From assembly GCF_051903065.1 (NCBI RefSeq), contig NZ_CP178438.1: a stretch of DNA of 64,000 bases; one strand, written 5' to 3'. Position 1 is the stretch's first letter. Each line of letters begins with the position of its first letter. Shown piece by piece: positions 1-54,995 of this stretch. Made by a program: the position numbers and the translations under genes. The notes below the pieces were generated by a model. That model did not search any database. It saw only the letters and a list, made by a program, of their open reading frames with translations, and was not told the origin of the DNA. Origin of the DNA: Escherichia coli (GTDB lineage: Bacteria; Pseudomonadota; Gammaproteobacteria; Enterobacterales; Enterobacteriaceae).

Positions 1-87
1 TTCACCGCAATGACGTATACCAAAAGCAAAACGTTTAAAACCGAAAATGGTGCCCGTCGCTGGCTGGAAAGAAACTCAGGTGAGTGA
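1..87 (+). CDS. ydfA: 3' end of a small prophage ORF (ydfA-like), truncated by the window edge
   Basis: Frame-1 open from position 1 to TGA at 85-87 (…MTYTKSKTFKTENGARRWLERNSGE*). Position immediately upstream of ydfB/ydfC/dicF matches the K-12 Qin dicA-ydfABC-dicF-dicB arrangement as I recall it. Confidence 0.4.
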   Translation, partial: FTAMTYTKSKTFKTENGARRWLERNSGE

Positions 88-88
88 T

Positions 89-217
89 ATGGATTTCGAC
101 ACAATCATGGAAAAGGCTTACGAAGAATACTTCGAAGGCCTTGCCGAAGGCGAAGAAGCTCTCAGCTTCAGTGAGTTTAAACAGGCGCTTTCCAGTTCGG
201 CAAAATCTAACGGCTGA
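89..217 (+). CDS. ydfB: small prophage protein, 42 aa
   Basis: ATG at 89, 42 codons (MDFDTIMEKAYEEYFEGLAEGEEALSFSEFKQALSSSAKSNG), TGA at 215-217. Below the 60-aa track cutoff. Size and position fit ydfB. Confidence 0.5.
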   Translation: MDFDTIMEKAYEEYFEGLAEGEEALSFSEFKQALSSSAKSNG

Positions 218-246
218 TAAGCGAAACAGCACCGCGAGGAATCAGT

Positions 247-465
247 ATGCAGAAACGAGAACCCGTCATCATCGCGCCAGACTATACCGATGATGAACTT
301 TATGAGTGGATGCGCCAGAAAATTAATGCAGCGCAGGATCTGAAATGGGCTAATGAAGCCAGGGCTAAGCAGGCTGAAAATCTGTCCGCTCTGGAGCAGG
401 ATATCACCAATCTGGAAAAAGCAGCGGCATTAAGCATTGCCAGAATGATTACATACCCGCGTTAG
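247..465 (+). CDS. ydfC: small prophage protein, 72 aa
   Basis: ORF track 247..465 (MQKREPVIIAPDYTDDELYEWMRQ…). Size and position immediately upstream of dicF fit ydfC. Confidence 0.6.
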   Translation: MQKREPVIIAPDYTDDELYEWMRQKINAAQDLKWANEARAKQAENLSALEQDITNLEKAAALSIARMITYPR

Positions 466-805: not shown

Positions 806-863
806 TTTCTGGTGACGTTTGGCGGTATCAGTTTTACTCCGTGACTGCTCTGCCGCCCTTTTT
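806..863 (+). ncRNA. dicF: DicF antisense sRNA (ftsZ translation inhibitor) with intrinsic terminator
   Basis: Sequence tttctggtgacgtttggcggtatcagttttactccgtgactgctctgccgcccttttt: ggcgg (821-825) pairs with ccgcc (853-857), followed by a T-run at 859-863. Matches the DicF sequence as I recall it and sits between ydfC and dicB. Confidence 0.7.
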
Positions 864-1032
864 AAAGTGAATTTTGTGATGTGGTGAATGCGGCTGAGCG
901 CACGCGGAACAGTTAAAACCAAAAACAGTGTTATGGGTGGATTCTCTGTATCCGGCGTTAATTGTTAACTGGTTAACGTCACCTGGAGGCACCAGGCACT
1001 GCATCACAAAATTCATTGTTGAGGACGCGATA

Positions 1033-1056
1033 ATGAAAACGTTATTACCAAACGTT
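1033..1056 (+). pseudogene. dicB: dicB 5' fragment (first 8 codons, MKTLLPNV) interrupted by IS1
   Basis: ATG at 1033, atg aaa acg tta tta cca aac gtt = MKTLLPNV, the N-terminus of the cell-division inhibitor DicB. The IS1 inverted repeat begins at 1057. Confidence 0.7.
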
Positions 1057-1071
1057 GGTAATGACTCCAAC

Positions 1072-1575
1072 TTATTGATAGTGTTTTATGTTCAGATAAT
1101 GCCCGATGACTTTGTCATGCAGCTCCACCGATTTTGAGAACGACAGCGACTTCCGTCCCAGCCGTGCCAGGTGCTGCCTCAGATTCAGGTTATGCCGCTC
1201 AATTCGCTGCGTATATCGCTTGCTGATTACGTGCAGCTTTCCCTTCAGGCGGGATTCATACAGCGGACAGCCATCCGTCATCCATATCACCACGTCAAAG
1301 GGTGACAGCAGGCTCATAAGACGCCCCAGCGTCGCCATAGTGCGTTCACCGAATACGTGCGCAACAACCGTCTTCCGGAGCCTGTCATACGCGTAAAACA
1401 GCCAGCGCTGGCGCGATTTAGCCCCGACATAGCCCCACTGTTCGTCCATTTCCGCGCAGACGATGACGTCACTGCCCGGCTGTATGCGCGAGGTTACCGA
1501 CTGCGGCCTGAGTTTTTTAAGTGACGTAAAATCGTGTTGAGGCCAACGCCCATAATGCGGGCTGTTGCCCGGCAT
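1072..1575 (-). CDS. insB: IS1 transposase InsB (expressed as InsAB' by -1 frameshift)
   Basis: 167-aa [30 protein letters not shown]…, recognisable as IS1 InsB. Confidence 0.95.
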
Positions 1576-1769
1576 CCAACGCCATTCATGGCCATATCAA
1601 TGATTTTCTGGTGCGTACCGGGTTGAGAAGCGGTGTAAGTGAACTGCAGTTGCCATGTTTTACGGCAGTGAGAGCAGAGATAGCGCTGATGTCCGGCGGT
1701 GCTTTTGCCGTTACGCACCACCCCGTCAGTAGCTGAACAGGAGGGACAGCTGATAGAAACAGAAGCCAC
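1494..1769 (-). CDS. insA: IS1 InsA (repressor / N-terminal part of transposase)
   Basis: 91-aa [46 protein letters not shown]…, recognisable as IS1 InsA with its zinc-finger-like CxxC…CxxC. Confidence 0.95.
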
Positions 1770-2928: not shown

Positions 2929-3115
2929 TTTAATATTTATCAAATAGTTGACACGTATGACTCTTGAAATCCATAAATTCAAGCGCAGTGCCCAGCCATC
3001 CCGATACTGCTGCTTTCACCAAATCCTTAGTGCTTCTTTCGTGTTTTTCTATTGTCATAATGGTTATCTCTAAAAAAGAGGTAAGATGCGTACTACTTAC
3101 TCGCCGTTATTGGTA

Positions 3116-21212: not shown

Positions 21213-21593
21213 GCCTACTCAAACCAACGTTAATAGCCATCCTAAAATAGACGAAGCGCCAGCCAATTCCCGCAGCGCGTCTAGCGTCATCAGGATTATA
21301 AGTACCCAAATAAACGGATTCATTTTGCTGTGTGTCATTTATTACTGATGCGCAGTTATTCTACCGCTTTGTAAGTAGTAAAATAGTTAACCCGATCAAG
21401 ACTACTATTATTGGTAGCTAAATTTTCCTTAAGTCACAATACGTTATTATCAACGCTGTAATTTATTCAGCGTTTGTACATATCGTTACACGCTGAAACC
21501 AACCACTCACGGAAGTCTGCCATTCCCAGGGATATAGTTATTTCAACGGCCCCGCAGTGGGGTTAAATGAAAAAACAAATTGAGGGTATGACA

Positions 21594-21902
21594 ATGAAAA
21601 AAGTATTAGCTCTGGTTGTTGCCGCTGCTATGGGTCTGTCTTCTGCCGCCTTTGCTGCAGAGACTGCGACCACACCTGCTCCGACTGCGACGACCACCAA
21701 AGCAGCACCGGCGAAAACTACACATCATAAAAAACAGCATAAAGCAGCACCTGCCCAGAAAGCGCAGGCGGCTAAAAAGCATCATAAAAATGCGAAAGCT
21801 GAACAGAAAGCCCCAGAACAAAAAGCGCAGGCAGCGAAGAAACACGCCAAGAAACACAGCCATCAGCAACCGGCAAAACCTGCTGCACAACCCGCAGCGT
21901 AA
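21594..21902 (+). CDS. asr: acid shock protein (periplasmic, Lys/Ala/His-rich, low complexity)
   Basis: Start at [21 protein letters not shown] (signal peptide); 102 aa with repeated [10 protein letters not shown](A/H)K motifs. Confidence 0.9.
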
Positions 21903-21994
21903 GTTTTCAACAGTAATGCTGGCGCGCCCCCTCGCGCCTGAAAATTACGGTGCTAAGCGGGTAACGTTTAGCACCGCCTTTAGCGGAGGGTAGT

Positions 21995-22078
21995 ATGGTG
22001 GGCCGTTATCGCTTTGAGTTCATTCTTATCATCCTTATTTTATGCGCACTGATTGCCGCCCGTTTTTATCTTTCCTGA
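21995..22078 (+). CDS. ydgU: small hydrophobic protein, 27 aa
   Basis: ATG at 21995: MVGRYRFEFILIILILCALIAARFYLS*. Single predicted TM segment; below the track cutoff. Position between asr and ydgD fits ydgU. Confidence 0.55.
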   Translation: MVGRYRFEFILIILILCALIAARFYLS

Positions 22079-22177
22079 CTGTAGTTATCTGATTTTACTC
22101 CCACTTTCATCCCGTCCCGTCTATAGTATTTATGAGGGTTTGCTTTTAATAATCATAATTACCCACCAGAGTGTGAT

Positions 22178-22999
22178 ATGCGTACAACCATTGCTGTAGT
22201 GTTGGGTGCAATTAGTTTGACGTCTGCTTTTGTGTTTGCAGATAAACCAGACGTTGCCAAATCGGCAAACGATGAGGTCAGCACCCTGTTTTTTGGTCAT
22301 GATGATCGTGTGCCAGTGAATGACACGACCCAATCACCGTGGGATGCGGTTGGGCAACTGGAAACGGCCAGCGGCAATTTATGTACGGCGACGCTGATTG
22401 CACCCAATCTGGCATTAACGGCAGGACACTGTTTATTGACACCTCCAAGGGGTAAAGCCGATAAAGCAGTGGCGCTGCGTTTTGTGTCAAATAAAGGTCT
22501 TTGGCGCTATGACATCCACGACATAGAAGGCCGCGTTGATCCGACACTGGGAAAGCGGTTAAAAGCAGATGGGGATGGTTGGATTGTACCTCCCGCAGCC
22601 GCGCCGTGGGACTTCGGATTGATTGTGCTACGTAATCCCCCTTCTGGCATTACGCCGTTGCCGTTATTTGAGGGAGATAAAGCCGCGCTTACCGCCGCAT
22701 TAAAAGCGGCAGGTCGTAAAGTGACTCAGGCAGGATACCCTGAAGATCATCTCGATACGTTGTACAGTCATCAAAACTGTGAAGTGACTGGCTGGGCGCA
22801 AACGTCGGTGATGTCACATCAGTGCGATACCTTGCCGGGTGACAGCGGTTCGCCTCTGATGTTGCATACCGATGACGGCTGGCAATTAATTGGGGTGCAA
22901 AGTTCGGCTCCTGCCGCGAAAGATCGCTGGCGCGCCGATAACCGGGCCATTTCTGTTACCGGTTTTCGCGACAAGCTGGATCAACTGTCGCAAAAATAA
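22178..22999 (+). CDS. ydgD: secreted trypsin-like serine peptidase (S1 family)
   Basis: Signal peptide; catalytic motifs TAGHC (His) and GDSGSPL (Ser). Confidence 0.9.
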
Positions 23000-23719: not shown

Positions 23720-24130
23720 TGTCCTTCTCCTGCAAGAGAATTATTTTAATTTTCGCTTAATTCAGCGAAACCAAAGTAAAGTGGTCAAGCCCCGCGCTTA
23801 GCGCAAGCTTTGGCAGAAGAAAGGACTAAAGCGCGTTGCGCCAGTGCTGCTCACCTACGAGCAAGATAGTGGATGAGGTACGAAGATGGGTAAATGTAGA
23901 AAATAACGTCCTGAACAAATTGTCCATAATATTACAATTATCCGCAGTGTTGCTTCTCGTCATCGCGGATGATAATTGTCCTCGGTAGTTGAACACGCCT
24001 GATTTGTATCATAGCTTAAGAATTAACTCAAAATATTTTCATTTCTTTACCTGAGCGGTTTGATTTTCGTTATGATGACGGAGCGAAAAAGACATTATTA
24101 TTAGCAAAGGAAGAAAAAACGGGGACAAGC

Positions 24131-32376: not shown

Positions 32377-33096
32377 ATGAACACTATCGTATTTGTGGAA
32401 GATGATGCGGAAGTCGGTTCACTGATTGCCGCGTACCTGGCAAAACATGATATGCAGGTTACCGTAGAGCCGCGCGGCGACCAGGCCGAAGAAACCATTT
32501 TGCGAGAAAATCCGGATTTGGTGTTACTCGACATCATGCTACCAGGCAAGGACGGCATGACCATTTGTCGTGATTTACGCGCAAAGTGGTCCGGACCGAT
32601 TGTTCTTCTAACCTCTCTCGATAGCGATATGAACCACATCCTGGCACTGGAAATGGGTGCCTGCGACTATATTCTCAAAACGACGCCCCCTGCTGTTTTG
32701 TTAGCGCGTTTACGTTTGCATTTGCGTCAGAATGAGCAAGCCACGCTGACCAAAGGTCTTCAGGAAACGTCACTGACTCCCTACAAAGCCCTGCATTTCG
32801 GCACGTTGACCATCGATCCTATCAACCGCGTAGTCACCCTGGCTAACACTGAAATCTCGCTCTCGACAGCTGATTTCGAATTATTGTGGGAATTAGCTAC
32901 CCATGCCGGGCAAATCATGGACCGCGATGCATTGCTGAAAAATTTACGCGGCGTCAGTTATGACGGCCTGGATCGTAGCGTGGACGTGGCTATTTCGCGG
33001 TTAAGAAAAAAACTGCTCGATAACGCCGCTGAACCTTATCGCATTAAAACTGTGCGTAACAAAGGCTATCTTTTTGCGCCTCATGCATGGGAATAA
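32377..33096 (+). CDS. rstA: OmpR-family response regulator
   Basis: Start at MNTIVFVEDDAEVGSL…; receiver domain (LLDIMLPGKDG) plus winged-helix domain. The track ORF is 5'-extended. Confidence 0.9.
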   Translation: MNTIVFVEDDAEVGSLIAAYLAKHDMQVTVEPRGDQAEETILRENPDLVLLDIMLPGKDGMTICRDLRAKWSGPIVLLTSLDSDMNHILALEMGACDYILKTTPPAVLLARLRLHLRQNEQATLTKGLQETSLTPYKALHFGTLTIDPINRVVTLANTEISLSTADFELLWELATHAGQIMDRDALLKNLRGVSYDGLDRSVDVAISRLRKKLLDNAAEPYRIKTVRNKGYLFAPHAWE

Positions 33097-33099
33097 GCG

Positions 33100-34401
33100 A
33101 TGAAAAAACTGTTTATCCAGTTTTACCTGTTATTGTTTGTCTGCTTCCTTGTGATGTCTCTGCTGGTTGGGTTGGTGTACAAATTTACCGCCGAACGCGC
33201 GGGCAAACAGTCGCTGGATGATTTGATGAACAGTTCGCTGTATCTGATGCGCAGCGAATTGCGTGAGATCCCCCCACATGACTGGGGTAAGACGCTGAAA
33301 GAGATGGATTTAAATCTCTCTTTCGATCTGCGAGTCGAGCCACTGAGTAAATACCATCTTGATGATATTTCCATGCACCGGCTGCGTGGCGGCGAAATTG
33401 TCGCCCTGGACGATCAGTACACGTTTTTGCAACGTATCCCGCGCAGCCACTACGTGCTGGCAGTTGGTCCTGTTCCTTATCTTTATTATCTCCATCAGAT
33501 GCGATTGCTGGATATCGCCCTGATCGCTTTTATTGCTATTTCCCTCGCCTTTCCGGTGTTTATCTGGATGCGTCCGCACTGGCAGGATATGTTAAAACTG
33601 GAAGCAGCGGCGCAACGATTTGGCGATGGGCATCTCAATGAACGTATCCACTTTGATGAGGGTTCGAGCTTTGAACGACTTGGTATCGCATTTAACCAGA
33701 TGGCGGACAATATCAACGCCTTGATTGCCAGCAAAAAACAGCTTATTGACGGTATCGCTCACGAACTGCGAACACCGTTAGTGCGCCTGCGTTATCGACT
33801 GGAGATGAGCGATAACCTGAGCGCCGCCGAATCCCAGGCGTTGAATCGTGATATCAGTCAACTTGAAGCTTTAATTGAAGAGCTGCTGACTTATGCCCGA
33901 CTCGATCGCCCACAAAACGAGCTTCATCTTAGCGAACCAGACCTGCCGTTGTGGCTGTCAACGCATCTGGCAGATATTCAGGCAGTAACGCCCGATAAAA
34001 CGGTACGGATAAAAACGCTCATGCAAGGCCATTATGCGGCGTTGGATATGCGCTTAATGGAGCGCGTGCTGGATAATTTGCTCAATAACGCCCTGCGCTA
34101 CTGCCATTCAACGGTTGAAACCAGCCTGCTACTGTCGGGGAATAGAGCGACATTAATTGTTGAGGATGATGGCCCAGGGATTGCCCCAGAAAACCGCGAA
34201 CATATCTTTGAACCTTTTGTTCGCCTCGATCCCAGCCGGGATCGCTCAACCGGCGGCTGCGGGCTGGGGCTGGCAATTGTCCACTCTATAGCACTGGCAA
34301 TGGGCGGTACGGTTAATTGTGACACCAGCGAACTGGGTGGTGCCCGCTTCTCGTTTAGCTGGCCGTTATGGCATAACATCCCGCAATTTACCTCTGCTTG
34401 A
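33100..34401 (+). CDS. rstB: sensor histidine kinase
   Basis: 433 aa; HAMP plus H-box (HELRTPL) plus ATPase domain. Confidence 0.9.
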   Translation: MKKLFIQFYLLLFVCFLVMSLLVGLVYKFTAERAGKQSLDDLMNSSLYLMRSELREIPPHDWGKTLKEMDLNLSFDLRVEPLSKYHLDDISMHRLRGGEIVALDDQYTFLQRIPRSHYVLAVGPVPYLYYLHQMRLLDIALIAFIAISLAFPVFIWMRPHWQDMLKLEAAAQRFGDGHLNERIHFDEGSSFERLGIAFNQMADNINALIASKKQLIDGIAHELRTPLVRLRYRLEMSDNLSAAESQALNRDISQLEALIEELLTYARLDRPQNELHLSEPDLPLWLSTHLADIQAVTPDKTVRIKTLMQGHYAALDMRLMERVLDNLLNNALRYCHSTVETSLLLSGNRATLIVEDDGPGIAPENREHIFEPFVRLDPSRDRSTGGCGLGLAIVHSIALAMGGTVNCDTSELGGARFSFSWPLWHNIPQFTSA

Positions 34402-54355: not shown

Positions 54356-54597
54356 GTCATTGCCTCTCATTGAAGTATGATGGCTATTTGACACTATCCT
54401 TTACCCTCGCTCAACAGTTTAATAACCTGCCAGCAATAAGGTATGTTGTTTAACTTAAGTCAAAAAAATAGCGAATTTTCCAACGACAAAAGCTAAATAT
54501 CGCAAAAACCTCAGTAAAAATCTTGCTGGAGCTATTATTGCTAAGTAACATTTACCCCCTGAAGTTAATGGATCAATCAACAGAGATGTGAGTTGTA

Positions 54598-54723
54598 ATG
54601 AATCGTCTTATTGAATTAACAGGTTGGATCGTTCTTGTCGTTTCAGTCATTCTTCTTGGCGTGGCGAGTCACATTGACAACTATCAGCCACCTGAACAGA
54701 GTACTACGGTACAACACAAGTAA
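54598..54723 (+). CDS. blr: small membrane protein, 41 aa (divisome-associated; affects beta-lactam resistance)
   Basis: ATG at 54598: MNRLIELTGWIVLVVSVILLGVASHIDNYQPPEQSTTVQHK*. Below the track cutoff. Confidence 0.7.
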   Translation: MNRLIELTGWIVLVVSVILLGVASHIDNYQPPEQSTTVQHK

Positions 54724-54995
54724 GCTCTGCGCTTGTAGAGCGACATGCTGCCCGTCCGGGTGCATGTTTTCACTTGTCGGATATTAAACCAGGAATTTAT
54801 TATCTTGTTCGGTGTTGTTGGTGATTGTCAGGGATAGTAAAGCGCGTTACTCTTTTCATAGCAGTTTTTCATCCCTGAATATTTGCCATCAGCGCATTCT
54901 TATTATTGTAATAACACAAGCGTTCACTTTTGGTGAAATTTTATCATCACTAATAATACCTACCCCTTTGGTATTAATTATTTTATGGACCTTTT

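Follow-up and report, generated by a model that had tools for sequence, protein, structure and literature searches.

Three small-protein genes below a 60-residue cutoff in a 64-kb segment of the Escherichia coli chromosome, including ydgU (samT) of the asr-samT operon

Three short genes and their annotation

The window analyzed here is a 64-kb segment of the E. coli chromosome, collinear with the genome NZ_AP045789.1 as judged by exact coordinate agreement at ydfB, ydgU, rstB, and blr. It contains three open reading frames (ORFs) that fall below the 60-amino acid default floor of the ORF lister and are therefore absent from its default track: a 27-codon ORF at positions 21995..22078 (+ strand; MVGRYRFEFILIILILCALIAARFYLS), a 41-codon ORF at 54598..54723 (+; MNRLIELTGWIVLVVSVILLGVASHIDNYQPPEQSTTVQHK), and a 42-codon ORF at 89..217 (+; MDFDTIMEKAYEEYFEGLAEGEEALSFSEFKQALSSSAKSNG). 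The original prediction had placed all three ORFs at these coordinates, had recognized that their length hides them from the track, and had named them ydgU, blr, and ydfB from the raw sequence. The annotation agrees on every point: coding sequences (CDSs) in the RefSeq record NZ_AP045789.1 coincide to the base with the three ORFs and carry the product labels “small membrane protein YdgU”, “division septum protein Blr”, and “protein YdfB”; the curated K-12 record lists the genes as b4601, b4409, and b1572, respectively; and all three products pass family models. We conclude with high confidence that ydgU, blr, and ydfB are real genes for small proteins that E. coli annotation already included, and that ydgU, since renamed samT, comes second in the asr-samT operon. 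The three genes, their identities, and the biology of YdgU/SamT are thus already known and documented, and no new question is opened by them here; what they illustrate is that ORF tracks with a 60-amino acid floor miss functional genes.

The existence of a short ORF carries no weight in itself, since 56 ORFs of at least 20 amino acids overlap a 3.3-kb stretch around ydgU. We therefore collected all start/stop pairs of 10-59 codons lying wholly between larger annotated genes (247 candidates in 7.3 kb), and scored each for Shine-Dalgarno (SD) duplex energy and Kyte-Doolittle hydrophobicity. ydgU ranks first of the 247 on both scores, with an SD duplex energy of -10.0 kcal/mol for the sequence GGAGGG (21985..21990, +; 4 nt before the ATG) and a maximum hydrophobicity of 3.06; its sole tie is its own alternative GTG start one codon downstream. 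blr has a weak SD and lies in the top 2.4% of candidates for hydrophobicity, and ydfB is unremarkable for both measures. The hydrophobic cores originally predicted for the first two ORFs are thus present. The accompanying description of all three products as small membrane proteins holds for YdgU and Blr, which are published inner-membrane peptides (PMC11429745, PMC10470546), and fails for YdfB, which is acidic and has no apolar segment.

Among 5426 complete E. coli genomes, the ydgU region is matched in 5422 and the blr region in 5424. The window’s alleles of both genes are distinct from those of K-12. For YdgU, the asr-ydgU-ydgD locus, the peptide length, the SD, the RstA box, the operon partner, and 26 of the 27 residues are as in K-12 (b4601), and the single difference is an alanine at residue 22 in the window (A22) in place of the K-12 threonine (T22). 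Blr likewise shares with K-12 Blr (b4409) its ydgJ-blr-cnu locus, its length of 41 amino acids, and full-length matches (residues 1-41 of 41) to Pfam PF24673 (87.9 bits against a threshold of 27) and NCBIfam NF033231 (91.3 bits against 40), but carries two C-terminal substitutions, A35T and S36T, so that the window’s protein ends in QSTTVQHK and the K-12 protein in QSASVQHK.

Blr contains an 18-residue apolar run, and its gene is followed closely on the 3' side by a terminator-like hairpin and T-run (54749..54762, +), a pattern match from a consensus scan. One report, citing Karimova 2012, describes Blr as a small membrane component with a stabilizing effect on the divisome during stress, and the same report identifies it as a class I substrate of the intramembrane protease RseP (PMC10470546). 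The blr product encoded in the window would accordingly be a 41-residue bitopic membrane protein, an accessory component associated with the cell-division machinery and a substrate of RseP. In the ydgJ-blr spacer we also observed an unannotated 33-codon ORF (54450..54551, -) that lies upstream of ydgJ on its strand and has the second-strongest SD in our scan, at -8.8 kcal/mol.

ydfB, its prophage setting, and further small reading frames

Three uncharacterized genes lie at the promoter-proximal end of the dicBF operon, and ydfB is among them (PMC5069750). The ydfB start codon lies 1 nt past the stop codon of ydfA, which ends at position 87 (+) in the RefSeq annotation, and a putative SD, AGGTG, is placed 6 nt upstream of the ATG; ydfB is probably translationally coupled to ydfA. 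Downstream lie ydfC (247..465 in the RefSeq annotation of the collinear genome), an intact DicF RNA (807..858; Rfam), a C-terminally truncated dicB pseudogene (928..1056), and, directly after dicB, an IS1A transposase gene (1072..1769), the last two as annotated in the collinear genome. The YdfB protein, WP_000344964.1 in that genome, matches the phage protein profile phrog_2061 (96.8 bits, E = 1.3e-27), and its gene is placed between ydfA and ydfC, upstream of dicF.

Compared with K-12 YdfB (b1572), the window is 100% identical in DNA to K-12 strains over positions 30..250, and the gene order ydfA-ydfB-ydfC-dicF is the same. The surrounding prophage differs: the K-12 Qin prophage has an IS2 remnant, ydfE, and intact dicB and ydfD, whereas the collinear genome has a truncated dicB followed by IS1A. 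The Qin-type prophage here is thus in a decay state different from that in K-12, as read from the collinear genome’s annotation against the K-12 record. That annotation also lists the prophage integrase as N-terminally truncated.

YdfB contains 10 acidic (D+E) and 3 basic (K+R) residues, for a net charge of about -7. We found no membrane-spanning segment in the protein, in which the maximum 15-residue Kyte-Doolittle average is 0.25 and the longest run without charged, histidine, or amide residues is six. Its acidity and the lack of a hydrophobic stretch rule out YdfB as a small inner-membrane protein. Instead, the ydfB product would be a 42-residue acidic protein of cytoplasmic type, encoded by a defective prophage of the Qin type within its DicA-repressed dicBF operon. 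Our search found no direct evidence of YdfB translation, and the only phenotype it returned comes from a screen of overexpressed genes for resistance to oxidants (PMC8228696).

The ydfB region is a prophage segment found in 3259 of 5426 E. coli genomes, often in multiple copies, and comparison of these copies bears on both the coding status and the start of the gene. Judged by the codon position of their variable sites, the intact diverged copies show coding-type conservation, with 8 of 10 such sites at third positions (P = 0.003). In another copy a mosaic breakpoint comes right after the stop codon, and a further one, which breaks off inside the ORF, carries a pseudogene annotation. A tblastn search of phage genomes with YdfB returned nothing at E<=1e-5, perhaps owing to the short Glu-rich query and the low-complexity filter; a search with ydfB DNA gave matches in five lambdoid phage records.

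One copy, designated H63, differs from the window at about 10 of 221 nt and encodes an identical protein. This copy is informative for the alternative that the annotated ydfB start is wrong and that translation really begins at an upstream in-frame ATG (base 47) or GTG (base 50), giving a protein of about 56 residues that overlaps the end of ydfA. Such a protein is conceivable in that the frame is open from base 47 and the phrog_2061 profile has 12 additional N-terminal positions that the 42-residue protein leaves unmatched. In H63, however, the upstream ATG is changed to CTG and the GTG to GAG while the 42-residue protein is unaltered, which supports a start at base 89, and the AGGTG sequence is positioned for that ATG, right after the ydfA stop. 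On these two grounds we reject the upstream start, to which we give only a small probability.

The original prediction also anticipated other small ORFs in the intergenic regions, and three came to light: mdtU, ynfP, and an ORF of the KPN_01571 family. mdtU (23826..23927, -) encodes a 33-residue peptide identical to the curated K-12 product b4777 and is an upstream ORF of mdtJI; MdtU is induced under acid stress (PMC10746267). The automated PGAP pipeline instead calls a 56-residue product, “YdgV” (23826..23996, -), which has the same stop codon. The Pfam model for YdgV, PF23502, covers only residues 24-56 of that 56-residue product. In addition, mdtU is intact in all six genomes compared, with 2, 1, and 8 variable sites at first, second, and third codon positions (8 of 11 at the third; P = 0.009), in contrast to 2, 3, and 1 in the 23-codon N-terminal extension. 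The model coverage and the codon-position contrast together favor the short MdtU start, and the PGAP start of YdgV looks over-extended by these measures. SD strength, an apolar core, and codon-position bias among close species can recover small genes, and can also arbitrate between start codons, as for MdtU and the PGAP call.

The KPN_01571-family ORF (21219..21338, -) encodes a hydrophobic peptide of 39 residues, or 34 from its second methionine, and is flanked by ynfM and the asr promoter. It is a PGAP CDS that scores 63.3 bits against NF033695 (cutoff 35), and it is intact but unannotated in the curated K-12 record. Its status as a gene is uncertain, because it has no SD and, although intact in four of five Escherichia genomes, it is frameshifted in E. 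whittamii. The ynfP-like ORF (2930..3058, -) would encode 42 residues, compared with 36 for the K-12 translation (b4534), from which it differs by A35T and by six extra codons in place of the K-12 stop; PGAP leaves it unannotated in the collinear genome. Since the annotated right boundary of the Qin prophage falls within ynfP, the sequence at the prophage end determines the C-terminus of its product.

Coding evidence for ydgU

YdgU matches the NCBIfam equivalog model NF052476 from end to end (residues 1-27 on profile positions 1-27; 70.3 bits, cutoff 24), and also exceeds the cutoff of NF011341 (74.5 bits against 66). Its hydrophobic core is a 14-residue apolar run, FILIILILCALIAA, preceded by R4 and R6, consistent with its description as a single-helix inner-membrane peptide. 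We searched for the gene across species by back-translating the motif G-R-Y-R-F-E-F-I and scanning about 100,000 species-representative genomes, for which the estimated information content of the pattern predicts about 26 chance matches. The scan returned 35 matches, of which about 29 are chance matches in unrelated phyla and six are real. All six real matches are in Escherichia (E. albertii, E. whittamii, two unnamed species, and two E. coli-cluster genomes); the exact motif had no real match outside this genus among these representatives, and the wider distribution of YdgU is taken from the literature alone.

In the resulting set of seven Escherichia sequences, including the window, the ydgU ORF is intact with identical start and stop codons in all seven, and the SD GGAGGG is invariant. 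Variable sites number 2, 3, and 8 at the three codon positions (8 of 13 at the third; P = 0.035), a modest codon-position signal over 13 sites. Amino-acid changes are restricted to residues 13, 22, 23, and 27, and both the A22 and T22 alleles are found across Escherichia species. Variation is unevenly distributed along the gene: codons 1-11 show no nucleotide variation at all, synonymous sites included, compared with variation at 8 of 16 third positions in codons 12-27 (Fisher P = 0.008). This pattern suggests an additional nucleotide-level constraint on the 5' codons of ydgU (21995..22027, +), as far as seven aligned sequences can indicate.

The ydgU-ydgD spacer (22079..22177) is more conserved across Escherichia than the coding sequence of either ydgU or ydgD. 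It has 11% variable columns, compared with 17% in the ydgU ORF, so nucleotide conservation by itself is not proof of coding. The conservation of this spacer suggests that it may be a constrained regulatory region for ydgD.

These comparisons bear on the simplest alternative, namely that the three ORFs, above all the shortest, of 27 codons, are open only by chance within untranslated RNA (the asr 3' UTR, a spacer, or prophage DNA) and give rise to no functional protein. The abundance of short ORFs around ydgU, the unremarkable SD and hydrophobicity scores of ydfB, and the even stronger conservation of the spacer next to ydgU are all compatible with this explanation. Against it, ydgU ranks first on two independent criteria and keeps its length in seven of seven sequences; variable sites favor third positions in ydgU, ydfB, and mdtU alike; and curated family models are passed. 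Published ribosome profiling, tagging, and phenotypes argue in the same direction (PMC10746267, PMC11429745, PMC13425233, PMC10470546), and for ydgU and blr the published translation and tagging data already largely refute a chance origin. We consider it exceedingly improbable that the three ORFs arose in this way.

For ydgU, the experiments that the original prediction proposed as checks are already in print. By Ribo-seq, ydgU ranks in the top three genes for induction at pH 4.4 (log2FC 9.22), in a transcription unit common with asr (PMC10746267). Start-site profiling was performed under low Mg2+, and a GFP-YdgU fusion localizes to the cell periphery (PMC11429745); the same report also refers to earlier epitope tagging of ydgU in the genome.

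The asr-samT operon, RstB-RstA feedback, and a predicted RNA fold

asr, which encodes an acid-shock periplasmic protein, lies directly upstream of ydgU in the same orientation (21594..21902, +; RefSeq CDS; 99.1 bits against NCBIfam NF033636, cutoff 50), and a 92-nt spacer separates the two genes. About 100 nt upstream of asr is an RstA-box match, TACATATCGTTACA (21477..21490, +), with zero mismatches to the consensus TACATNTNGTTACA, which reportedly goes back to Ogasawara et al. 2007. This is the sole perfect match in the 64-kb window, with about 0.008 expected by chance. The genes for the cognate two-component system lie 10 kb downstream of ydgU: rstA (32377..33096, +) encodes the response regulator (RefSeq CDS in the collinear genome and ORF in the window; NCBIfam NF007977, 485 bits, cutoff 330), and rstB (33100..34401, +) the sensor kinase (ORF; NF007898, 833 bits, cutoff 478). 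The RstA box, asr, samT, rstA, and rstB, and with them the whole loop discussed below, are thus contained within the window. We found no sigma-70-like promoter match in 21350..22250, the asr-ydgU spacer included.

Northern blots and reporters have demonstrated that asr and ydgU form an operon (PMC13425233, PMC11429745). Expression of ydgU depends on PhoQP and proceeds via the asr promoter, and the region just 5' of ydgU gives negligible activity (PMC11429745). A 2026 paper in NAR renamed the gene samT and showed that the asr-samT operon is RstA-dependent (PMC13425233). In that study, a two-hybrid assay gave a strong interaction of SamT with RstB and weaker ones with PhoQ and EnvZ. RstA-dependent expression at pH 5 increases when the operon is lost; complementation showed samT to be responsible for the negative effect, which vanishes once phosphotransfer from RstB to RstA is disabled. 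Asr, for its part, provides an independent positive feedback at neutral pH (PMC13425233). YdgU is therefore more than a “small membrane protein”: its function is now that of SamT, a negative modulator of RstB-RstA (PMC13425233).

Taken together, this literature shows that acid pH, or low Mg2+ acting through PhoQP to raise rstAB expression, activates RstB-RstA. RstA then switches on the asr promoter, from which asr and samT are co-transcribed and both heavily translated. The 27-residue SamT is located in the inner membrane, and its loss increases RstA-dependent output at pH 5 as long as RstB can pass phosphate to RstA. We infer, by analogy with MgrB and PhoQ, that the single helix of SamT docks onto the membrane-spanning part of RstB and thereby lowers net kinase output. 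SamT would in this way close an MgrB-like negative feedback loop, with Asr from the same mRNA adding its independent positive effect.

The comparison with MgrB was drawn by the SamT authors. Both are small single-helix inner-membrane peptides that are under two-component control, bind a sensor kinase, and exert negative feedback (PMC13425233). SamT differs from MgrB in its length of 27 residues, in targeting RstB, and in being co-encoded with a positive modulator, Asr, and it is considered a functional analogue from outside the MgrB family. According to the authors, the two peptides lack strong homology in sequence (PMC13425233), and our NCBIfam and Pfam scans of YdgU returned YdgU-specific models only. 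MgrB acts in this way on PhoQ, and YdgU/SamT is a recent further case of a tiny membrane peptide tuning a two-component kinase.

Folding of the asr-ydgU spacer plus the first part of ydgU predicts a structured RNA (21925..22000, +), with a minimum free energy of -52.6 kcal/mol (z = -3.36) that none of 200 shuffled sequences equaled in stability. The predicted fold has a central hairpin (21948..21976) enclosed by an outer helix, in which CCCTC (21929..21933), a C-rich stretch shortly after asr, pairs with GAGGG of the ydgU SD (21986..21990). A consensus fold of the seven sequences places one compensatory pair in the central hairpin (C-G to U-A, in one Escherichia genome), along with several wobble changes. 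The outer helix is invariant in all seven, so that covariation neither supports nor refutes its pairing with the SD.

In a different reading of the locus, the samT region would work chiefly through its RNA, for example by forming a structured 3' part of the asr mRNA that influences how stable or how well translated asr is, or by giving rise to a 3'-derived small RNA, and the peptide would be secondary or one half of a dual function. The unusually strong fold and the compensatory change in its central hairpin would fit an RNA function, as would the lack of synonymous variation in ydgU codons 1-11, though the latter may equally reflect constraints on translation initiation. A term search of the SamT paper returned no samT start-codon or nonsense mutant (PMC13425233), so that peptide and RNA are told apart mainly by the two-hybrid result. 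That result, in which a T18-SamT fusion binds RstB strongly, argues for the peptide, as do the dependence of the feedback on RstB-RstA phosphotransfer and the ability of samT alone to complement from a heterologous locus (PMC13425233). The third-position bias and preserved frame of ydgU likewise argue for selection on the peptide. We therefore regard a mainly RNA-level role as highly improbable, and favor the SamT peptide as the agent of the negative effect.

Within a peptide-based account, the fold could still act on samT translation. The 92-nt asr-samT spacer might serve as a translational switch, with the predicted fold sequestering the samT SD and an alternative local hairpin, GGCGCG-CCCCCT-CGCGCC, potentially freeing it. 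We think such a switch unlikely, if well short of far-fetched, and the SamT authors themselves raise translational control of SamT relative to Asr as a possibility (PMC13425233). If it does operate, it could determine how much SamT is made relative to Asr from their shared mRNA, balancing negative against positive feedback on RstB-RstA.
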